From sequence record PQ847473.1: a stretch of 42,960 nt of DNA; one strand, written 5' to 3'. This stretch comes from Escherichia phage vB_EcoP_P64441. Position numbers and translations under genes: made by a program. This document shows positions 9,909-32,085 of the stretch, one piece after another (the first letter of the stretch is position 1; each line of letters starts with the position of its first letter). The notes under the pieces were generated by a model. It did no database searches and had not been told where the DNA came from. It saw only the letters and a program-made list of their open reading frames with translations.

Positions 9909-11465
9909 TTATTGAATTAAACCTAATTGTTGACCTGCTACAGTCGGGTCAGTAACTTGCAATAATGATTGCTGCTGCTGCTGGTCCTGCTGCTGCTGTG
10001 CTTGCTCTGCTTGCTGGCGTGCTTGCAATTCCTCTTCACTATAGAAGAAGGCACTGCTCTGAATGCCGAAGCTATCCATTACACTGTCAATCAAAGCATC
10101 AACGTTAGTACGTACAGTTGCCTGTTGCAGTACTGGTACAATTAATTGAAGACTCTGTACTGCTTCAAGTAGTCTATCAGCCTGGGCTGACTTGTACAAG
10201 CTAGCGGTCCCTACCGTTACATCCAGCTCCAATGCACCGAGCTCGAACATAGGTCGAATCTCAGGATACTTATTAAGAACGTACAGGTACGCGAGTTTAC
10301 GAAGCCAATTATCTGCAAGTGTAGAGTAAGCGTCACCTAAGGCTGATTGTGCTTCTTGAGCATTCTGACGAATCTCATAAGCAGTTACACGCTCACCTTG
10401 ACGAGTGTTACCGCCGTACATGAATGCACGGGATAGCTTCTGCTCGATAGTGCTAATCTCAGCTTGTAGCGCGGCAATCTTCTGAGCGTTCCCACCTTCA
10501 TGGGACCATACTCCAGAACTGGTACCTGCGGGCTGGTTAGTCTGTACGAACTCACCTGTCTCTGCATCTTGCAATGCATCAATATCTACACCAGAAGCTG
10601 AGCTAACCATGTTAACTACTCTCGCTGCTTCCACCTCATACAAGGTTAAGCTACGGGAAAGTACAGATAAACGGGCGAAGTCACCAGCGTAATCCTCAAC
10701 GAGGCTACGACCGTAGTGCTCACCATTAACAAGGTTCCATGCCAGTACTACGTACGGACATTGGTCCTCAGGATAATAGCTAGGCTCACCTACAGGGTAG
10801 GTTTCGACTTCCTGATATACTTTATATACATAACCAAGCTCACGACGCTCACGCATAATTCCAGTAAATAAGCGCACATCATCGTACATCTCCTTATTGG
10901 AGAAGTGAGCTCGTCGGATATCATCTGGGATATCCGCAACGCTGATACGTTCACGTAGGATTGTAGTCAGTACGTTACCGGCTCCATCACGCTTAGTAGC
11001 ATAATCGCGCACGCTGTATACGTAAGAACGTTCAGTTTCGGAGTCGAAGTATTCCAGAGCATTGCCAGTTACGAGTAATAGTTTAATAGCGCGTAGCTTT
11101 GCAGCATACCCACCTTTAGTGAATACGATACTAGATGCTACAGCTTCCATTTCAGCCTGAGCTGAGAAGACCGGACCTTGCAGACCTAATTGGTCAACAA
11201 TCCCTGTAAGGTCAGCGGATGCCGCGAATCTAAAGAATGGACTGCCTTGTGGAAACAATGCATCTACAATCTTAGTAGCTGCTGAGTTGACAAGCAGCGC
11301 ACCAGTACTCTGATAGTCATGCACCAGAGAAGTACGCTTACCGTCACTCGCTGTAATATCCTTAGTGAATACGTTAGGAAGTGTCCAGCGAGCGTATTGC
11401 TCAGCAGCGTCTAGTGTAGATGCATCCTTCAATCGAACGAATAAATCTGCTAAACGCTTTTGCAT
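9909..11465 (-). CDS. Portal (head-to-tail connector) protein (gp8-like)
   Basis: 518 aa. 'GERVTAYEIRQNAQEAQSALGDAYSTLADNWL' parallels T7 gp8 'GERVTAEEIRYVASELEDTLGGVYSILSQEL'. Gln-rich C-terminus. Confidence 0.85.
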   Translation of the reverse strand: MQKRLADLFVRLKDASTLDAAEQYARWTLPNVFTKDITASDGKRTSLVHDYQSTGALLVNSAATKIVDALFPQGSPFFRFAASADLTGIVDQLGLQGPVFSAQAEMEAVASSIVFTKGGYAAKLRAIKLLLVTGNALEYFDSETERSYVYSVRDYATKRDGAGNVLTTILRERISVADIPDDIRRAHFSNKEMYDDVRLFTGIMRERRELGYVYKVYQEVETYPVGEPSYYPEDQCPYVVLAWNLVNGEHYGRSLVEDYAGDFARLSVLSRSLTLYEVEAARVVNMVSSASGVDIDALQDAETGEFVQTNQPAGTSSGVWSHEGGNAQKIAALQAEISTIEQKLSRAFMYGGNTRQGERVTAYEIRQNAQEAQSALGDAYSTLADNWLRKLAYLYVLNKYPEIRPMFELGALELDVTVGTASLYKSAQADRLLEAVQSLQLIVPVLQQATVRTNVDALIDSVMDSFGIQSSAFFYSEEELQARQQAEQAQQQQDQQQQQSLLQVTDPTVAGQQLGLIQ

Positions 11466-20489: not shown

Positions 20490-21071
20490 TTATTCGCTTA
20501 CATTAACCCAATCAGGACGCTCACCCTTACCGCAGTAAAAGTCAATCAGGTCTAGTAAGCGTGGATAATACTTCAGCGAACTCTTACCGTCCATTTCCGC
20601 AACCTGGCGCTTACTGAAGCTGCGCCACTCTGCTGCCGTATGCTGCTGACATCCTACACGCACTATGTCATTACAGATACTAATGAAGTACGTTTCTCCG
20701 TATATAATGACAGTCTTGGCGCCGCGCAGGTCAGCGCGGCGCAGGTTAGCGCTGCGCAGGTCAGCTTCGCGCAGGTCAGCGTCGCGCAGGTCAGTGCCGG
20801 TCAGGTCAGCGCCGCGCAGGTCAGCGCCGCGCAGGTCAACGTCGCGCAGGTCAGCGCCGCTCAGGTCAGCGCCGCGCAGGTCAGTGCCGGTCAGGTCAGC
20901 GCCGCGCAGGTTAGCGTAGCGCAGGTTAGCGCCGCGCAGGTCAACGTCGCGCAGGTTAGCACTGCTCAGGTCAGCGTCGCGCAGGTCAGCGTCGCGCAGG
21001 TTAGCGCGGCGCAGGTCAACGCTGTGCAGTCTTCCTAACTTATACTTTTCGCAGATTTCTTGATAGTTCAT
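20490..21071 (-). CDS. Pentapeptide-repeat protein 2 (about 22 A(D/N)LxG/R-type repeats plus a roughly 75-aa non-repeat C-terminal domain)
   Basis: '[56 protein letters not shown]...' is a continuous pentapeptide repeat as in Qnr/MfpA DNA mimics. Encoded by a 15-bp tandem DNA repeat. The N-terminus is paralogous to 27205..27741. Confidence 0.8.
20718..21030. repeat. 15-bp tandem repeat array (coding; pentapeptide repeats)
   Basis: Units such as 'gcgcaggtcagcgcc' / 'gcgcaggttagcgcc' repeated about 20 times. Confidence 0.9.
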
Positions 21072-21111
21072 AGTTAACCTATATGTAAAGAATTATTTAT
21101 TACTGGACAAA

Positions 21112-21160
21112 TCCTGATATTCATGATATAATAAAACCCTTCCTACGCAGGGCTACACCT
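21112..21160. repeat. Copy B of the conserved ~45-bp element (inverted relative to 1418..1482)
   Basis: Plus strand 'catgatataataaaacccttcctacgcagggctacacct' is the reverse complement of the match at 1438-1482. Confidence 0.5.
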
Positions 21161-21347
21161 ACTTCTCCACAACTTCATACTCAGAGGGTGCAAAAGTAAA
21201 CTCCTCATCTTCATCTCCTAAATCAACCTCTCCTGTGTCAGGGAAGAACTCATATACTTCGTGAACACTGCCTACCGGGAATCTATCCATGTACTCGAAC
21301 ATCTCGCCTACACCATATGCACTGTAGTTAAGAATGCGAACTTTCAT
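21159..21347 (-). CDS. Hypothetical small acidic protein (62 aa)
   Basis: 'DTGEVDLGDEDEEFTFAPSEYEVVEK' is strongly acidic. First ORF downstream of promoter P1. Confidence 0.4.
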   Translation of the reverse strand: MKVRILNYSAYGVGEMFEYMDRFPVGSVHEVYEFFPDTGEVDLGDEDEEFTFAPSEYEVVEK

Positions 21348-21461
21348 ATTGAATCCTCTTAAGTCTGCAACCTCACCGCGAAGTTGCTTAACTAAGAGAC
21401 TTCCTTAGCGAGCCTTATTTCTCTTAGACTCTTATCTACATCGCACTGTATTACCTGTGCA

Positions 21462-21512
21462 CGGGAGGAACCGCTCAAGCTCGTACTATCTACCCAGAGC
21501 TTTCAGGAGGGC
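21462..21512 (-). promoter_or_regulatory. Conserved leader element copy 1 (6-bp stem AAGCTC/GAGCTT, 14-nt loop with invariant GGGTAGATA on the transcribed strand)
   Basis: Flanks 'gggaggaaccgctc' and 'caggagggca' are conserved with the copies at 28797-28850 and 30337-30391. The stem sequence differs between copies but pairing is kept. Confidence 0.55.
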
Positions 21513-21579
21513 ACCGGGATTAAAGTCCCCGGTGACTATCAATCCGCTTTGCTATCTGCATCTCGTCTTGATGAAATGA

Positions 21580-21607
21580 ATTCTACAGCATTCTAAAACT
21601 GTGTCAA
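21580..21607 (-). promoter_or_regulatory. Sigma70-like promoter P1 (TTGACA-16 nt-TAGAAT) reading the minus strand
   Basis: Minus strand 'gtgTTGACAcagttttagaatgctgTAGAATtc'. Sits between the DNA polymerase gene and the 62-aa ORF. Confidence 0.5.
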
Positions 21608-21619
21608 CACTTATTTTAA

Positions 21620-22807
21620 TTAAATTACCATCTCCCCTTTAAAGGACTTACCAATCTCACATTCAGCGGGAAACTTAACTTCAGACAGTATGCCAAAGTT
21701 AGGCCACAGCTGTAGCATCCTATCACGGGCTCCTTCCATAACGTTTTTGATGAGCTTACCCGCCTTACGGGCCGTCTCTTCGTCAGCACAATCTATGTAC
21801 AAACAGTCATGGACGGTAACCAGCAAACACCATTTACCCCCCATCCAATTGTCAGCTATACCAGCCCTCATAGCCATTCCGGTTGCAATAAGCATAAGCA
21901 GGGAACCTGATCCTTGAAACGGATAGTTAGCCATCTCTGTGGGCTTAAAGTCCATTACCTGCTTACCTTCGCGCCACACCGGCTTCTGACGGAAGCGGTA
22001 GCGAGTACCGCAAGGCGTAGTGAAGTAGCCCTCGCGATAGATACGCCAGCTGCCGTCATCTGCTTGTTCACGGCGTATAGGCTCCAGCAGCGCAGTACGG
22101 TTTACTTCAGCTGCAATGACATCCCTGTACTTAATAGACTCAGGGAATAGTGCCTCCTCGTTAGCTAAGAACTTCTCAGCGTCGGCTAAGCTAGCACCTG
22201 AGGCGAACGCCAGTCCTTTAGCGGATGCTCCATATTGTGCTGCGAAGCTGAAGGTTTTGATGGCTGTTCGCTTCTTCTTCCATCCTTTATGGTCCGGTGC
22301 ATCCAGGTTATGGCAAAGCTCGTAGACTTCTTCATAAGGCATACCTTCTTGGAATGCTAGACGATAGCAGTGCATATCCGTACCGGCTTCAAGCAAGCTC
22401 AGTAATTTCTTATCACCAGTGATTACACAGCCCATTACAACCTCCATAGCTGAGTAGTCACACTGTGCAATCATACCCTGCTCACCATAGCGGCTACGCA
22501 GAATCTGCTTAACCTTAGACTCACGCGGCAGCTGCTGCATGTTCGGGTTAGATGTTGACAGGCGTCCGGTAGTAGTTGAGCAGTGATTCGACCTGTGGTG
22601 AATGATGCCAGAACCATCTGCTGATGTAGGGATGACGTACGGCAGCATGCCCGTCACCTTACGCAGACTGCCATCCTTATTAGTCTCACGTACTTCATAG
22701 AAGCCGAGGTCCTTCTGGCGTGTAGTCATTTCTTTGTATGTTTTGAAGAAGTCTGAAGCTAACTTAGCCATCTTGTTCCATCCCAATAAAATAATGTGCA
22801 AGGTCAT
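21620..22807 (-). CDS. DNA polymerase (family A), polymerase-domain ORF
   Basis: 'GRLSTSNPNMQQLP' (pre-motif A), 'CDYSAMEVV' (motif A, DYSxxE), 'RTAIKTFSFAAQYGAS' (motif B), 'VTVHDCLYID' (motif C, HD). Overlaps the upstream exonuclease-domain ORF by 44 nt in the +1 frame. Confidence 0.8.
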   Translation of the reverse strand: MTLHIILLGWNKMAKLASDFFKTYKEMTTRQKDLGFYEVRETNKDGSLRKVTGMLPYVIPTSADGSGIIHHRSNHCSTTTGRLSTSNPNMQQLPRESKVKQILRSRYGEQGMIAQCDYSAMEVVMGCVITGDKKLLSLLEAGTDMHCYRLAFQEGMPYEEVYELCHNLDAPDHKGWKKKRTAIKTFSFAAQYGASAKGLAFASGASLADAEKFLANEEALFPESIKYRDVIAAEVNRTALLEPIRREQADDGSWRIYREGYFTTPCGTRYRFRQKPVWREGKQVMDFKPTEMANYPFQGSGSLLMLIATGMAMRAGIADNWMGGKWCLLVTVHDCLYIDCADEETARKAGKLIKNVMEGARDRMLQLWPNFGILSEVKFPAECEIGKSFKGEMVI

Positions 22808-23915
22808 TCATTGCGTCCATTCCTGTGCTGTACACAGGGCTACCATCCGCTAATGTTTGAGCACCTTTGTATTCACCGCGGTCTCCGTACTTCTCACGTA
22901 GAGACTGAGGTAGGTCCTGAATATTAACCAGCCCGTCGAAGCGGTACAGGCGTTCACCCCACTTCATAGCTTGCTCGTCAGTGTCTACTTTTATGAACTT
23001 AGGCATACCCTTATTACGCCCAGACTTATACACCCCGTCCTGTACTTCCTTCTTAATGTATTTAGGTGGGTCATAAGGAACCTTGCACTTGTACTTAACC
23101 GTGCCGCCATACACTAAAGCGGACATATGATAACCGCTATTCCATTTAAACTCGAAGCCCTCTGGCAATTCTGGCAAGAATGTCTGAAGTAACTCCCGCA
23201 GATTCCGAATAGCGTCCTCCTGCTCCTTCTGATTAGCTCTGGCTGTAGGCATATCAACGTACACGCCATTGAACTCACAGTATGCCAGAGCTGCGACTGC
23301 CTCCATCCTTTCCCAGACCATAGGCATCTGTCCACGTTCCGCAAATACTGCGCATTGCCCGTAGAAGCACAGCGCTGTGTTGACTATGTCACCGTTAGGC
23401 CCTGTTAAGTATTCATGTAGTAGCATAGGGTCAATGTCTGCTGTCAGAACCCCTTGCTGCCATAGTAGCTTAACGCCGTCGACTTTGTGTGACCCGCCAT
23501 ACTTAGGGGCAGTCTCATCTAGTGACGGGTAAAGATTCTGGAAGTCGCTGGCAATGTACTCGCCCTGCATAGTATCAAAGACTCGACCTCCTCGTCTAAG
23601 GAACGACTCGAACTGCTCACGGGCAAAGGTCAGCGCCCAGCTAATCTCGTACGCTGCGTTGTGCGCTACGATTAACCACGTATCATCCTGAATAGGTAGC
23701 CACTGCTTAGGGTCAGCTGCTAAGAAATCAGTTCGGGATTCATAGCGTACACTCTGCACCTCGCTGCACTGTACAGTCCCATCCGGCATAGTCCTATCGA
23801 TGCGGAAGCCTGATTCTACGATGTAGTTATCAGGGCAGTACGGAGTTGCGACCCCGCCGTAGTACGGATGATTTTGAGTTTCAATATCCCAAATTAGAAT
23901 GCTACTCATTTCCAA
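22764..23915 (-). CDS. DNA polymerase (family A), N-terminal 3'-5' exonuclease-domain ORF
   Basis: 'LIWDIETQ' is an Exo I (DxE) motif. Contiguous with the polymerase-domain ORF. The called start at 23915 is TTG; a likely ATG start lies at 23909 (MSSILIWDIET). Confidence 0.7.
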   Translation of the reverse strand: MEMSSILIWDIETQNHPYYGGVATPYCPDNYIVESGFRIDRTMPDGTVQCSEVQSVRYESRTDFLAADPKQWLPIQDDTWLIVAHNAAYEISWALTFAREQFESFLRRGGRVFDTMQGEYIASDFQNLYPSLDETAPKYGGSHKVDGVKLLWQQGVLTADIDPMLLHEYLTGPNGDIVNTALCFYGQCAVFAERGQMPMVWERMEAVAALAYCEFNGVYVDMPTARANQKEQEDAIRNLRELLQTFLPELPEGFEFKWNSGYHMSALVYGGTVKYKCKVPYDPPKYIKKEVQDGVYKSGRNKGMPKFIKVDTDEQAMKWGERLYRFDGLVNIQDLPQSLREKYGDRGEYKGAQTLADGSPVYSTGMDAMNDLAHYFIGMEQDG

Positions 23916-27204: not shown

Positions 27205-27741
27205 TTAGATACTAACCCAATCAGCGACGCGCAGGTCAGCGTCGCGCAGGTCAGTGCCGGTCAGGTCAGCGCCGCGCAGGTCAGCGCCGCGCAGGTTAGC
27301 GCCAATCAGGTTAGCGTCGCGCAGGTTAGCGCCGCTCAGGTCAGCGCCGCGCAGGTTAGCGCCGCGCAGGTTAGCGCCGTGCAGGTCAGCGCTGCGCAGG
27401 TCAGCGCCGCTCAGGTCAGCGCCGCTCAGGTCAGCGATGTTCAGGTCAGCGTAGCGCAGGTCAGCGCCGCGCAGGTCAGCGCCGCTCAGGTCAGCGCCGC
27501 GCAGGTTAGCGCCAATCAGGTTAGCGTCGCGCAGCTTAGCGTCGCTCAGGTCAGCGACGCGCAGGTCAGCGTCGCTCAGGTCAGCGTAGCGCAGGTCAGC
27601 GCCGCTCAGGTCAGCGCCGCGCAGGTCAGCGTCGAGCAGGTTAGCGCGGCGCAGGTCAGCGCCGCACAGGTCAGCGCCGCACAGGTCAGCGCCTTCCAAG
27701 GATTCCAACTTGTATTTATTACAGATATTGTCATAAGTCAT
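27205..27741 (-). CDS. Pentapeptide-repeat protein 1 (about 30 contiguous pentapeptide repeats)
   Basis: '[44 protein letters not shown]...' runs almost to the C-terminus. Likely start is the ATG at 27741 (MTYDNICNKYKL) with a GAGG ribosome-binding site; the track ORF extends to 27792. Confidence 0.8.
   Translation of the reverse strand: MTYDNICNKYKLESLEGADLCGADLCGADLRRANLLDADLRGADLSGADLRYADLSDADLRVADLSDAKLRDANLIGANLRGADLSGADLRGADLRYADLNIADLSGADLSGADLRSADLHGANLRGANLRGADLSGANLRDANLIGANLRGADLRGADLTGTDLRDADLRVADWVSI
27225..27695. repeat. 15-bp tandem repeat array (coding; pentapeptide repeats)
   Basis: About 30 units of 'gcgcaggtcagcgcc'-type repeats. Near-identical at the DNA level to the array at 20718-21030. 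Confidence 0.9.
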
Positions 27742-27751
27742 ATTAGTAACC

Positions 27752-27991
27752 TCAGTTAATTTTAATATTAAAACGTGCACAATACCCTTCAAGGGTCATC
27801 CCTACTTTAGCTGCTTTAAGACTGTAAGCTAACTTAAGAGCTTCCTTAGCGTCATGCTCACGAGCCAGCTTCTCAATCGTTACTTCATCATTACGCATCA
27901 GAATCATTTCGGGGTTCCGGTTAATCATTTCTGCATCTCCAGTTTGAAAAGGGCCATTGCAGCGTTCAGGCGAAACGCGGGTTGCATTCAT
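27752..27991 (-). CDS. Hypothetical protein (79 aa)
   Basis: ORF only. Confidence 0.3.
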   Translation of the reverse strand: MNATRVSPERCNGPFQTGDAEMINRNPEMILMRNDEVTIEKLAREHDAKEALKLAYSLKAAKVGMTLEGYCARFNIKIN

Positions 27992-28375: not shown

Positions 28376-28702
28376 TTATTTAACTCCTTTCGGTGTAGAA
28401 GACTTAGATTTAAAATAACTGTTAATGCGCTGGCAAGTCTTGCTACTAGGGCGGCAAGTGCGTTCACCACGTTCTTTGTACTCAGCGCTCTTAGCACTGC
28501 GCTGAGAGGCTTTATCTGACCAGTCATTACTAGGAATGGCTTCTGCTTTATAAGTATGCGTCATGAGCTTCTTAAGAGCTTTACGGGCCTCAGTACCCTC
28601 AGGCTTCTGTGCCAGCTGAACTAATTCACTACGATTAGCTTCTAACTTCTTAGCATCTTCAACAGAGATACCGAAACGACGTGCTTGAGCTTTAGCGTTC
28701 AT
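28376..28702 (-). CDS. Hypothetical basic protein (108 aa)
   Basis: Lys/Arg/Ser-rich. First ORF downstream of promoter P2 and its leader. Confidence 0.4.
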   Translation of the reverse strand: MNAKAQARRFGISVEDAKKLEANRSELVQLAQKPEGTEARKALKKLMTHTYKAEAIPSNDWSDKASQRSAKSAEYKERGERTCRPSSKTCQRINSYFKSKSSTPKGVK

Positions 28703-28796
28703 CTTAACTCCTTAGTGGTTTTATTAAAGCCCTCCGCAGAAGGCTTTGTAAAACTACTTTAGTTTCTTTCATCTCAGACCCACTGAATTATCCGTG

Positions 28797-28850
28797 GACG
28801 GGAGGAACCGCTCGAGCCTGTTCTATCTACCCTAGGCTCTCAGAAGGGCA
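28797..28850 (-). promoter_or_regulatory. Conserved leader element copy 2 (stem GAGCCT/AGGCTC, loop with GGGTAGATA)
   Basis: Plus strand 'gacgggaggaaccgctcGAGCCTgttctatctaccctAGGCTCtcagaagggca'. Confidence 0.55.
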
Positions 28851-28890
28851 ATCACTTAGCGTTGTTGATTAACGTCCTGCTATGAATCCA

Positions 28891-28918
28891 ACTATACTCC
28901 TATTTTATTTTGTGTCAA
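28891..28918 (-). promoter_or_regulatory. Sigma70-like promoter P2 (TTGACA-16 nt-TATAGT) reading the minus strand
   Basis: Minus strand 'gtgTTGACAcaaaataaaataggagTATAGTtgg'. Confidence 0.5.
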
Positions 28919-29933: not shown

Positions 29934-30272
29934 TTACGCATTATGTGCATTCTCCTCACAATACTGTAACGCAAAGCGCAGCAATTCATTATACAGCGAA
30001 GTAGTCAGAATCCCTTCATTATAGTACTCAGCCTCATGTTTACGGACAGTATCCTTAGCAATGCATGCTACCTTCAGACTGCACCCTGTAGCCTGCATAA
30101 GGCTGCGTACAAGCTGTGTATCCTTATAAGCTTTCTTAGCATGCCATTTAACAGCGCTTACTGCTGCACCTACAACAACCATACCACCCATCACGACAAA
30201 GCCAATTGCACTAGACATATCATATACCTTTAATTCTGTACCCTCGCAGCGAGGATACTTAACTAAAGACAT
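29934..30272 (-). CDS. Small membrane protein of unknown function
   Basis: 'AIGFVVMGGMVVVGAAVSAV' is a single predicted transmembrane segment. 112 aa. Confidence 0.4.
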   Translation of the reverse strand: MSLVKYPRCEGTELKVYDMSSAIGFVVMGGMVVVGAAVSAVKWHAKKAYKDTQLVRSLMQATGCSLKVACIAKDTVRKHEAEYYNEGILTTSLYNELLRFALQYCEENAHNA

Positions 30273-30336
30273 CTTAGCGAAGCTCTTGTCTCTTCAATCT
30301 AGTGAGCTTCTCATCTATTCCCTCTGTATAATCCGA

Positions 30337-30391
30337 GGACGCTAGGTAACGCTCAGAACCTGTTTATCTACCCCGGTTCTTCAGAAGGGCA
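30337..30391 (-). promoter_or_regulatory. Conserved leader element copy 3 (stem AGAACC/GGTTCT, loop with GGGTAGATA)
   Basis: Plus strand 'ggacgctaggtaacgctcAGAACCtgtttatctaccccGGTTCTtcagaagggca'. Confidence 0.55.
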
Positions 30392-30430
30392 ACCAGTTAT
30401 CGTATCTGGCTAACGTCTTGCTATGTACTG

Positions 30431-30459
30431 ACTATACTTCTACAAAACAGGTAAGTCAA
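30431..30459 (-). promoter_or_regulatory. Sigma70-like promoter P3 (TTGACT-17 nt-TATAGT) reading the minus strand
   Basis: Minus strand 'TTGACTtacctgttttgtagaagTATAGT'. Confidence 0.5.
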
Positions 30460-30633: not shown

Positions 30634-30747
30634 ATTACCTTTAAACGCATACATCTCACACAGCTTGCACCAGTAATGAAAGTACCCGTTCATATCACCT
30701 ATATCAGCGCATACCTCTACCATCTTCTCTAAATACTCTCGAGTCAT
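30634..30747 (-). CDS. Micro-ORF (38 aa), paralogue of 30466..30612
   Basis: Hand translation 'MTREYLEKMVEVCADIGDMNGYFHYWCKLCEMYAFKGN'. Its 5' leader ('caacacatagtaataggagataattgagac') is near-identical to the leader of the 244-aa gene at 31539-31572. Confidence 0.4.
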
Positions 30748-30803
30748 GTCTCAATTATCTCCTATTACTATGTGTTGTGCGGAGGCTCTCGCCGAACGCA
30801 CCC

Positions 30804-31539: not shown

Positions 31540-32085
31540 ATGTCTCAATTATCCCCTACTATTATGTGTTGGTAGTGTATTGGCTGTGACTCACCTTATT
31601 GTTAAAAGCTGTACAACTAATACACCAACTAATACAACTACCCGCAGCATAACACAGCACTAACCCTGCGTCAACCATTGCACAGCCTGGAAGCAAAAGA
31701 GGTAAGCCTAACGATACACCTGCACTACCTCTGACTCTCTACTGCGGATAAAATAGGCAAGAGCAGAGAGGACAGCATCTCCCTGTGCTCCACAAAATAG
31801 GCAAGACTAACCTCTCCCGCACCCTCAACAGAGAGCGCAGAGACAGCCAGCCAAGCCAGGTCCTGCCAGAGATACGCAGAGGCACCCCCTACCCTCCCTC
31901 CAGAAGATTCCCAGAGGCCGCCCCTACGGGGGGAACAGCGCGTTGGTCGGGTGAAGGAGGCCCTCGCGTGAGTATAATAAATTCAAGGTGCCTGTTTACA
32001 CTTGCAATCCTGAGCTATGTATGCTATGCCAAAGGATTCCCCAGAGATTCCAGGGGATTCCATTAGCAATTTCTCTAGCTATTCC
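31540..32085. other. Non-coding region, candidate genome-end / terminal-repeat region (collapsed in this circular assembly)
   Basis: About 550 bp with no credible ORF, lying between the last late gene and the first early gene. Contains short direct repeats ('aaaataggcaaga' twice, 'actaatacaNc' twice) and G/C-rich tracts ('ccctccctcc', 'cccctacgggggg'). Confidence 0.35.

Follow-up and report, generated by a model that had tools for sequence, protein, structure and literature searches.

Structured RNA elements have been described from the early transcripts of several phages. In phage lambda, the early promoter PL is followed by nutL and then by the gene for N, a basic protein of ~107 amino acids (aa), and the loops of the nut sites are lineage specific while their stems are free to vary. 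Early transcripts that T7 obtains from the host polymerase carry RNase III sites (R0.3 and others) as structured RNA in leaders and intergenic regions, and in T4 an early sigma70 promoter together with a structure, the promoter-early stem-loop (PeSL), is repeated on the flanks of variable small genes. In phage HK022, putL lies just downstream of the transcription start and putR lies ~270 nucleotides (nt) downstream (PMC9378689). The conAn system of Gram-positive conjugative elements combines a small protein with a structured 5′ leader RNA for processive antitermination of a long operon (PMC8191782). Here we describe an element that occurs three times (copies c1, c2, and c3) in the genome of Escherichia phage vB_EcoP_P64441 (PQ847473.1; the whole 42,960-nt sequence was analyzed and is referred to as the window). 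The element is a new RNA family among the structured cis-acting leaders behind phage early promoters: it is a ~90-nt domain of sense-strand RNA in the 5′ leader of each of three strong host RNA polymerase units.

Three copies behind host-type promoters

The window is a complete, circularly permuted genome of ~42.8 kb from a coliphage of the Autographiviridae/Slopekvirinae (Cepavirus-like, T7 supergroup). Its closest match in the phage collection is Escherichia phage vB_EcoP_PAS7, with ~78% nucleotide identity over 68% of the first 25 kb; PAS7 is the reference phage of the proposed genus Cepavirus (PMC11522302). No description of the element was found in the literature, and the PAS7 paper is silent on promoters and repeats. 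All long open reading frames (ORFs) are on the minus strand, which is therefore the transcribed sense strand. The gene order on this strand runs from a GC-rich genome end near 31.9 kb through the early genes, the primase/helicase and DNA polymerase genes (25965-21620), and nuclease genes to an 816-aa phage RNA polymerase gene (14700-12250) and then to the structural genes, which puts ~17 kb between the early end and the RNA polymerase gene. A GC-rich, repeat-like noncoding stretch near 31.6-32.0 kb on the minus strand probably holds the real genome end.

The original prediction had described a 6-bp stem with a 14-nt loop between conserved flanks at 21462-21512 (c1), 28797-28850 (c2), and 30337-30391 (c3), each copy just downstream of a sigma70-like promoter. 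The three copies are present there, with offsets of 1-2 nt at most, and the stems are as described (plus strand: AAGCTC/GAGCTT at 21477-21482/21497-21502 in c1, GAGCCT/AGGCTC at 28814-28819/28834-28839 in c2, and AGAACC/GGTTCT at 30355-30360/30375-30380 in c3). A covariance model built from 29 homologous copies had exactly three matches in the window, scoring 112 to 117 bits (Table 1; E value, ~1e-28), and the next-best score with filters off was 7 bits, which places the three copies far beyond chance. The conserved flanks are also present, except that the 3′ flank of c1 reads caggagggca and not cagaagggca. On the minus strand, the 14-nt loop is NGGGTAGATANNNN in every copy, with the sequence element GGGUAGAUA. 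The loop motif GGGTAGATA, which had been called invariant, is so among the three copies of the P64441 genome only; relatives show GGGTGGATA, GGCTGGATA, or GGGTAGACA in its place.

The placement behind sigma70-like promoters was borne out by a scan of the minus strand between 12.1 and 32.1 kb, the 20-kb early/middle region, in which the three best matches were the sites upstream of the three copies. Promoters with an A/T-rich upstream stretch are conserved before nearly all homologous copies, and the c1 promoter is kept upstream of the c1 copies in relatives. The domain begins ~13 nt past the start, which we infer to be the A in a conserved CAT located ~7-8 nt past the -10 element. The untranslated leaders are 180-225 nt long, and 65-100 nt separate the domain from the start codons. 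Some relatives have tandem sigma70-like promoters (TTGACA..TATAGT and then TTGACA..TAAGAT) before the c1 leader (PAS7, 10230-10375; L004; L035 c1; and phage ECO104 4-5-2, 5490-5640), spaced by a conserved ~90-nt segment (..GAGCCAACCGGAAACGGTCAGTAG..); the c1 leader of P64441 has one promoter and a P2 hairpin different from that of these relatives.

A covarying fold with a probable pseudoknot

Homologues were obtained from PAS7, two IMG/VR contigs, and seven Logan/ENA contigs, the last of these reached via homologues, in a large protein database, of the 108-aa protein encoded behind c2. The resulting comparison set comprises 29 copies (26 distinct sequences) from 11 genomes or contigs, aligned in 110 columns (alignment A3), with the structure derived by RNAalifold and manual inspection. 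When the three regions are aligned, the conserved stretch proves well wider than the 51-55 nt first reported and forms a ~90-nt domain with four hairpins, namely, P2 (5 bp with an 11-12-nt loop; 10-12 nt across copies), P3 (6 bp with a 14-nt loop), P3b (4 bp with a 6-nt loop), and P4 (4 bp with a 10-nt loop). The stem and loop first reported correspond to P3 and are real, but they are only the center of this four-hairpin, probably pseudoknotted domain. Similarly, the flanks taken to be linear are conserved but structural, as GCCC pairs with the loop GGGU and GCGG...CCGU is hairpin P3b, which is made by the flank gggaggaaccgctc.

Loss of base pairing in the homologous copies of related phages had been named beforehand as grounds for abandoning the idea, and the pairing is kept: standard pairs fill 98.7% of 598 cells across the 29 copies, with changes on both sides (compensatory changes) at 14 of 23 pairs. 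None of 500 shuffles reached the observed values, and sliding the 3′ partners by 1-3 columns lowered pairing to 26-42%. The shuffle control exaggerates significance, as the set is made up of paralogues and orthologues that are related to each other; the slid control and the number of distinct stems (9 for P3, 11 for P2, and 4 each for P3b and P4 among the 29 copies) are the stronger evidence. The P3 stem is paired in 100% of cells in its nine sequence versions, with double compensatory changes at all six pairs, and a selected RNA structure is thus strongly supported. Column entropies agree with a folded core, being 0.06 bits in the pseudoknot arms, 0.17 in L1 (UYCUGA), and 0.00 in the GA after P3, versus 0.97 in the P3 stem and 0.87 in the P2 stem; P3 is flanked by invariant CUGA and GA. 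Selection preserves the pairings and the junction and loop bases while stem sequences drift. Motifs of the GAUA(A/G) type recur in the loops of P2, P3, and P4, and the sister lineage described below has them in the loop of its main hairpin.

The alignment further points to a probable H-type pseudoknot around P3, in which GCCC (A3 columns 33-36) is complementary to GGGU (columns 50-53) in all 26 distinct sequences. The order of segments, i.e., S1a (GCCC), L1 (UYCUGA), the P3 5′ arm, 1 nt, S1b (GGGU), L3 (RGAUANNAC), and the P3 3′ arm, has the corresponding topology. The arm varies in one sequence only (L038 c2, GGCC with loop GGCU), where a C-G pair is replaced by G-C; since this is a single compensatory event, the support for the pseudoknot is suggestive rather than statistical.

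The strand on which the structure works can be read from its wobble pairs. On the sense strand, G·U occupies ~10% of paired cells (U·G in P3 and P3b; G·U in P3b and the pseudoknot), and the same cells are A·C on the opposite strand. RNA is therefore favored over a DNA cruciform, and the protein-recognized DNA hairpin that the original prediction had offered as an alternative is disfavored. Thermodynamic stability is ordinary (z = +0.25, +1.05, and -1.2 for folding energies versus shuffled sequence) and lends no support, so that the case rests on covariation. With its short stems and large conserved loops, the fold probably needs tertiary contacts or a partner. Overall, the fold of this new RNA family is very well supported.

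Several known motifs were compared with the domain and rejected. A hammerhead (CUGA...GA, GAUGAG) would have its required core positions in covarying stems, and no Rfam ribozyme model matched; a K-turn or C/D-box reading of the CUGA/GA flanks of P3 lacks a complementary C-stem. DnaA boxes (TTATCCAC-like, on the other strand) fit only some copies, with 2 mismatches, and the structure is strand specific. The likeness to CRISPR repeats (I-E, GGGGAUAAAC; I-F, CUAAGAAA) is superficial, and a CsrA GGA loop is not conserved, as the P4 loop begins with GGA, AGG, or GGG. The P3b loop (UUCCUC) shows no consistent covariation with downstream Shine-Dalgarno sequences that would suit an anti-Shine-Dalgarno role. 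For a closing helix P1 formed by the 5′ end with AGAUGAGA, the best complementarity (UCAUCUCA/UGAGAUGA) falls before the likely start and involves invariant bases.

In Rfam 15, the whole window had no match at gathering thresholds, and the three regions gave only noise at E values of ≤10 (PrfA at 21 bits versus a cutoff of 88, snoRNA models, and STnc380). A search for tRNA and tmRNA was negative, and 5,426 E. coli genomes had no blastn match to the element.

TABLE 1 Positions of the three leader units and their parts in the window
Feature	Position	Strand	Description
Sigma70-type promoter c3	30431..30459	-	TTGACT-17-TATAGT, 10/12 matches
Whole 5′ leader of unit c3	30219..30424	-	Part B homologous to that of c1
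Leader RNA domain c3	30321..30411	-	Covariance model, 112 bits; P3 at 30355-30380
Sigma70-type promoter c2	28891..28918	-	TTGACA-16-TATAGT, 11/12 matches
Leader RNA domain c2	28780..28870	-	Covariance model, 117 bits
P2 of c2	28850-28870		
Pseudoknot arms of c2	28846-28849 and 28829-28832		
P3 of c2	28814-28839		
P3b of c2	28798-28811		
P4 of c2	28780-28797		
Possible 22-codon upstream ORF of c2	28704..28772	-	Starts at conserved AGAUGA just after P4; weakly indicated
108-aa basic protein gene	28376..28702	-	Directly behind c2
Sigma70-type promoter c1	21580..21607	-	TTGACA-16-TAGAAT, 11/12 matches; overlaps end of DNA polymerase gene
Whole 5′ leader of unit c1	21348..21573	-	Inferred start to start codon
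Leader RNA domain c1	21443..21533	-	P2, pseudoknot, P3, P3b, and P4; covariance model (113.3 bits), alignment A3, and pair counts
Proposed pseudoknot of c1	21495-21492 and 21512-21509		Loop GGGU with upstream GCCC
P3 of c1	21477..21502	-	Sense RNA AAGCUC-UGGGUAGAUAGUAC-GAGCUU
P5 of c1 (part B)	21410-21431		Loop UAAGAGAAAUAAG
P6 of c1 (part B)	21392-21408		CUAAG/CUUAG
P7 of c1 (part B)	21358-21391		UUAAGC-hairpin-GC..CUUAAG; covers the Shine-Dalgarno sequence AAGAGG (21355-21360)
First cistron after c1	21159..21347	-	Acidic 62-aa protein, phrog_6862; relatives have other genes here
Intrinsic-terminator-like hairpin	21135..21154	-	AGCCCU-8 nt-AGGGUU and then UUAUUAUAU; directly after the 62-aa gene

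Leaders and first cistrons

Between the P2-P4 domain and the first cistron, the c1 and c3 leaders share a part B made of hairpins P5, P6, and P7, with covarying stems and the P5 loop UAAGAGA(C/A)AA. The c2 leader has no part B of this type and carries instead a covarying GC-rich hairpin ahead of the Shine-Dalgarno sequence. The possible upstream ORF of c2 runs through this hairpin, stops 1 nt before the main ATG, and is 19-22 codons long, with a 9-nt in-frame indel between relatives. The AGAUGA directly after P4 is conserved, and in most c1 and c3 copies its AUG begins a three-codon ORF (AUG AGA NNN UAA/UAG) that is preceded by the G-rich (GAGG/GGAG) 3′ arm of P4 and whose stop codon forms the first bases of the P5 loop. 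This mini-ORF is shared with both sister leader types (type-2 and Koutsourovirus-type). It occurs at 30314-30294 in c3, at ~40181-40192 in L003, and in the leaders of ECO104 4-5-2, L029, L039, and L040, and c1 of the window has AUA for AUG. The mini-ORF recalls phage “minigenes” with the rare AGA codon and may be a by-product of RNA constraints.

The terminator-like hairpin after the 62-aa gene is followed by an AT-rich spacer and is found in PAS7 as well. A near-consensus antisense sigma70-like site (TGGACA-17-TATAAT with an extended -10 TG; 21104-21132, plus strand) overlaps the T-tract of this hairpin and is directed toward the 62-aa gene and the c1 leader. The site probably arises fortuitously from the AT-rich tail of the terminator, but transcription of an antisense RNA from it could occur. 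Behind c3, the mechanically called start (ATG at 30272) lies inside the conserved P6 hairpin, and on the basis of the alignment with c1 and relatives the true start is most likely the ATG at 30218-30216 (MSSAIGFVVMGG..., a predicted small membrane protein). An unlisted 33-codon ORF (29941-29840, minus strand) encodes a hydrophobic peptide, MRNALYMLFIIPLMLLQVAAPFLAIYGLIQLLS, and overlaps the stop codon of the preceding gene; a “terminator-like” match at 29901-29882 falls within it. PAS7 (~1273-1374, unannotated) and ECO104 4-5-2 (~39296-39397) encode similar peptides immediately after the c3-type leader. Across all leader lineages, members of the 108-aa protein family share a conserved C-terminal half and differ in the N-terminus according to lineage or leader type.

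Relatives and evolution of the element

Three syntenic sites are occupied in all genomes for which enough sequence is available, with c3 in the early region, c2 ~1.5 kb further on and upstream of the 108-aa gene, and c1 immediately after the DNA polymerase gene. The genes behind them are less constant: several relatives have proteins unrelated to the acidic 62-aa protein as the first product behind c1, and the first gene behind c3 differs among genomes (small membrane proteins and others). Insertions are also seen ahead of the element. In PAS7, a 56-codon ORF stands between the c3 promoter and the element (811-1109) with no second promoter, and in ECO104 4-5-2 identical 36-nt promoter copies (38734-38769 and 39051-39086) flank an inserted ORF, so that the promoter-leader junction appears to be a gene-insertion hotspot. 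As the cargo varies and the element stays constant, promoter and leader act as a fixed generic cassette with exchangeable cargo. A gene-specific translational operator, which had been put forward as an alternative, is unlikely given the different first genes at c1 and c3 and the distance of the domain from the start codons.

A sister lineage, represented by ECO104 4-5-2, L029, L039, and L040, likewise has three leaders in each genome, at syntenic sites; their hairpins follow one another in the same order and show covariation of their own (13 of 25 predicted pairs). Its main hairpin is CUGAAGG-5 bp-(C/A)NGAUAACCAAGA-5 bp-YAGCC, and the loops differ in all three copies. In each of the Koutsourovirus-type genomes one leader was seen, before a homologue of the 108-aa protein; in one of them (L027), the covariance model weakly recognized equivalents of P3, P3b, and P4 (17 bits). 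Phage KP34 has an annotated sigma70 promoter followed by a leader of ~310 nt.

Most orthologous c3 copies share a c3-specific P3b variant (GCGU-UACCUA-GCGU), and stems differ among paralogues; the paralogues are old within the Cepavirus-like group. Their loop likeness is therefore kept by selection and not by gene conversion.

Searches beyond these relatives returned little. The exact IUPAC pattern matched two related contigs in IMG/VR, plus one chance match; in a single scan of JGI metagenomes its four matches were all chance occurrences in coding sequence, and in the phage collection the exact motif was found in PAS7 only. A scan with the part B pattern gave three more relatives among 22 loci, the remainder being chance, and locus searches with the 62-aa and 108-aa proteins added almost no homologues.

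Other features of the genome

The leader element is the largest dispersed repeat in the genome (family D2) after coding pentapeptide repeats and a 127-bp assembly overlap. The latter is a 100% identity over 127 nt between the window ends (1-127 and 42834-42960) and looks like the overlap of a circularized assembly (e.g., k = 127) rather than a biological terminal repeat. Two genes for pentapeptide-repeat proteins, with 15-nt periodic repeats, are on the minus strand at 20490-21071 and 27205-27792, the second with a Pfam Pentapeptide match (E = 3e-58). For the equivalent region of PAS7 (10872-11375), the annotation gives a “modular polyketide synthase” on the opposite strand; as tblastn puts the pentapeptide homologue on the main strand, this is apparently a misannotation. 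A 32-nt repeat with 91% identity (30746-30777 and 31540-31571) spans the ribosome-binding regions (..ACACATAGTAATAGGAGATAATTGAGACATG, sense strand) of two early genes upstream of promoter c3 and represents a second, smaller repeated leader. The DNA polymerase is split into two overlapping ORFs (383 and 395 aa; 21620-23915), as it is in PAS7 (7368-10225). In relatives, HNH endonuclease genes are inserted within or beside the DNA polymerase gene (e.g., L034, 13796-15588), pointing to a mobile-endonuclease hotspot just upstream of c1.

Proposed function and alternatives

We tentatively favor a role of the element as a nascent-RNA modifier of host RNA polymerase elongation (antitermination or anti-pausing) in the manner of put or nut. 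The domain would fold on leaving E. coli RNA polymerase and act on the same elongation complex, either by itself, as HK022 put RNA does, or together with an early protein of the phage, as lambda nut does with N; the small basic 108-aa protein encoded directly behind c2 is a speculative candidate for such a partner. Made resistant in this way to pausing, Rho, and intrinsic terminators, the polymerase could read, and probably also internalize, the ~17 kb of early and middle genes that precede the phage RNA polymerase gene, with the three copies re-arming the polymerases started at each of the three promoters. We favor this reading because the element is tied to host-polymerase units rather than to particular genes and its distance from the start is flexible, as for putR and nutR, because the conserved bases are unpaired or pseudoknotted, and because lineages infecting the same host species differ in their loops in a parallel way at all three copies. 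It is further favored because one copy always precedes the gene for a small basic protein whose N-terminus changes with the leader type, and because the way of the host polymerase to the phage RNA polymerase gene is ~17 kb long, with a terminator-like hairpin behind the first gene of unit c1. phiKMV-like phages have their phage-specific promoters downstream of their RNA polymerase gene (PMC10914365). The N-terminus that tracks the leader type and the lineage-specific loops may indicate a co-evolving partner. We hold it to be rather doubtful that a pseudoknotted leader, maybe read by a co-evolving phage protein, makes the host polymerase termination resistant at each of the three host promoters as a third independent solution to processive antitermination, next to lambda N/nut and HK022 put.

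Several observations weigh against a polymerase modifier. The early/middle region has 9 terminator-like sites versus 14 expected from shuffles, and with so few predicted terminators the need for antitermination is a matter of argument only. Pfam and PHROGs searches of ten early proteins revealed no N-, Q-, or NusG-like or other antiterminator domain, and the 108-aa protein has no significant Pfam, PDB, or Foldseek match and no recognizable RNA- or polymerase-binding fold. The link between its N-terminus and the leader type may be plain shared ancestry. Were host polymerase the sole target, the loops would be expected to be conserved in sister phages of the same host, and they are not. The copies have no boxA and no boxB-like pentaloop, and the covariance model found no similarity to the HK022 put regions. 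Finally, the translation-related features of the leaders (Shine-Dalgarno sequestration in P7 and the conserved mini-ORF) suit the main rival.

That rival is a generic module of the 5′ untranslated region (UTR) in which the domain, with P5-P7, would shield early mRNAs against RNase E and other decay, spare the long untranslated leader from Rho loading, and set how ribosomes load on any first cistron. We rank it nearly as likely as the polymerase modifier in view of three features of the leaders: part B ends in a UUAAG/CUUAA helix over the Shine-Dalgarno sequence, the P5 loop UAAGAGA resembles the true Shine-Dalgarno UAAGAGG, and the mini-ORF (AUG-AGA-NNN-UAA) after the G-rich P4 3′ arm is conserved in three leader lineages. 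The element is always in the 5′ UTR of a first cistron, a cassette with variable cargo is how a generic enhancer is expected to look, and KP34 and the Koutsourovirus relatives have structured leaders of 200-310 nt behind the early promoter. However, the P2-P4 domain is 65-100 nt distant from the ribosome-binding site, c2 combines it with a different part B, and the fold is not thermodynamically strong. The conserved single-stranded 5′ tail of ~13 nt would be no block to 5′-end-dependent decay, one PAS7 copy is internal to its transcript, and the near-invariant pseudoknot and junction bases suggest specific recognition. A further alternative is an operator through which an RNA-binding regulator encoded by the phage would jointly turn the three host-promoter units off, or on, as early transcription gives way to middle transcription. 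The logic would be like that of T4 RegA/RegB but acting in the leader, and it could include autoregulation of the 108-aa protein. Loops and junctions are alike across the three paralogues of a genome while stems differ, all three loops change in the sister lineage, and the sole leader found in the Koutsourovirus-type L003 is directly upstream of the 108-aa homologue, suggesting an ancestral autoregulatory pair. We nevertheless consider an operator unlikely, as there is no candidate protein with a recognizable RNA-binding domain, the element does not overlap the ribosome-binding site, and the association with leader type could be plain phylogeny.

The same compact pseudoknotted fold with invariant unpaired bases, standing behind the strongest promoters, could be produced, as the first and most strongly transcribed phage product, in the form of an abundant early decoy or aptamer RNA that titrates or inhibits a host factor (a nuclease, a defense sensor or toxin, or an RNA chaperone) before any phage protein is made. 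The recurrent GAUA(A/G)-type motifs, including those in the sister main loop, agree with a decoy, as do the candidates for 5′-UTR-derived noncoding RNA reported in other virulent phages (PMC10914365). Yet c1 and c3 have no terminator or processing signal that would free the domain as a separate RNA, the blastn search of the 5,426 E. coli genomes found no host RNA that it resembles, and the loops vary between phages of one host, all of which makes a decoy improbable. Least probable is an element acting in DNA, i.e., a protein-recognized hairpin or cruciform serving as a replication origin, priming site, or N4-type hairpin promoter, or a set of repeated promoter cassettes on which recombination acts to shuffle genes. 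In some relatives, c1 is behind tandem promoters with an AT-rich stretch after it, an arrangement with a loose likeness to the T7 primary origin, and the promoter duplications that flank inserted ORFs in ECO104 4-5-2, together with the variable cargo, recall T4 PeSL cassettes. Against this stands the strand specificity of the structure, with A·C on the other strand in ~10% of paired cells, and pseudoknot covariation and single-stranded junctions would be meaningless in duplex DNA. Moreover, recombination alone would homogenize the stems, yet these are the most variable part, and, if phiKMV-like phages are a guide, the promoters for the phage polymerase should be located past the RNA polymerase gene and not here.

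In phages of the phiKMV/KP34 type, the phage's own RNA polymerase gene is far from the genome end, so that a long stretch of DNA has to be expressed, and probably internalized, by the host polymerase. An element on each of three strong host-type promoters is a concrete, mutable handle on such reliable long-range host transcription. If it renders the polymerase termination resistant, it would explain how, in phiKMV-like phages, the host polymerase crosses ~17 kb to the phage RNA polymerase gene; if its role proves limited to mRNA stability or translation, the element remains a new RNA family whose covariation is unusually clean. In addition, promoter and leader form a compact, portable cassette from coliphages of therapeutic interest (Cepavirus relatives infecting Shiga toxin-producing E. 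coli), and the lineage-specific versions of the leader provide natural specificity swaps.

Comparison with known systems

Among the systems introduced above, conAn resembles the element in concept only, its host range, sequences, and proteins being unrelated. Like T4 PeSL, the element is a repeated promoter plus structured leader whose cargo varies and which has promoter duplications beside inserted ORFs. It differs from PeSL in being a 90-nt covarying domain with selected unpaired bases, in having three fixed syntenic copies where PeSL has many scattered ones, and in that its stems are not homogenized. The T7 RNase III sites likewise are leader structure in host-polymerase transcripts of a T7-group phage, but here there is no ~20-bp duplex (about two near-continuous helical turns) and no long-range duplex, the 4-6-bp stems being split by junctions; conserved single-stranded bases and the probable pseudoknot do not belong to RNase III sites. 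The original prediction had judged the stem too short for RNase III, and we agree, as the longest helix is 6 bp.

The likeness to lambda nut that had been proposed holds for position and fails for components. As in lambda, there is one site per early host-polymerase operon, behind each early promoter, with several copies, and one of them precedes a gene for a small basic protein, so that the order of promoter c2, element, and 108-aa gene parallels PL-nutL-N. BoxA and boxB are absent, and no N-family protein turned up among the ten early ORFs searched. No boxA (CGCUCUUA- or UGCUCUUUAACA-like) is conserved upstream of the hairpin in any copy; GCUCUU-like strings sit in the P6 stem only and vary by copy (UCUCUUAG, GUUCUUAG, and ACUACUUAG) as stem bases. 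The boxB arrangement of a 5-bp stem with a GNRA-like pentaloop, to which an arginine-rich motif binds, is not found among the hairpins, which have loops of 14, 10-12, 6, and 10 nt on stems of 4-6 bp. The 108-aa protein was considered as an N-like factor and set aside: its AlphaFold model has a predicted local distance difference test score of 66 and a helical N-terminal half, with no significant Foldseek, PDB, or Pfam match. It has no arginine-rich motif, and residues 5-20 look helix-turn-helix-like by eye only.

The comparison with HK022 put concerns position and general design. Put belongs to a lambdoid phage, works in cis as a processive antiterminator on E. coli RNA polymerase (β′ zinc-binding domain) with no need of phage proteins, and consists of two long irregular stems and a triplex, whereas the element belongs to a T7-like phage and has four short hairpins and a probable pseudoknot; run on the HK022 genome with filters off, the covariance model gave best scores of ≤14 bits, with none credible in the PL and PR regions. 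Nevertheless, both are multicopy folded RNAs of 70-90 nt past early sigma70 promoters of coliphages, both are found at variable distances from the start (mostly ~13 nt here and ~265 nt in PAS7 c3), and both have complex folds with conserved nonhelical bases.

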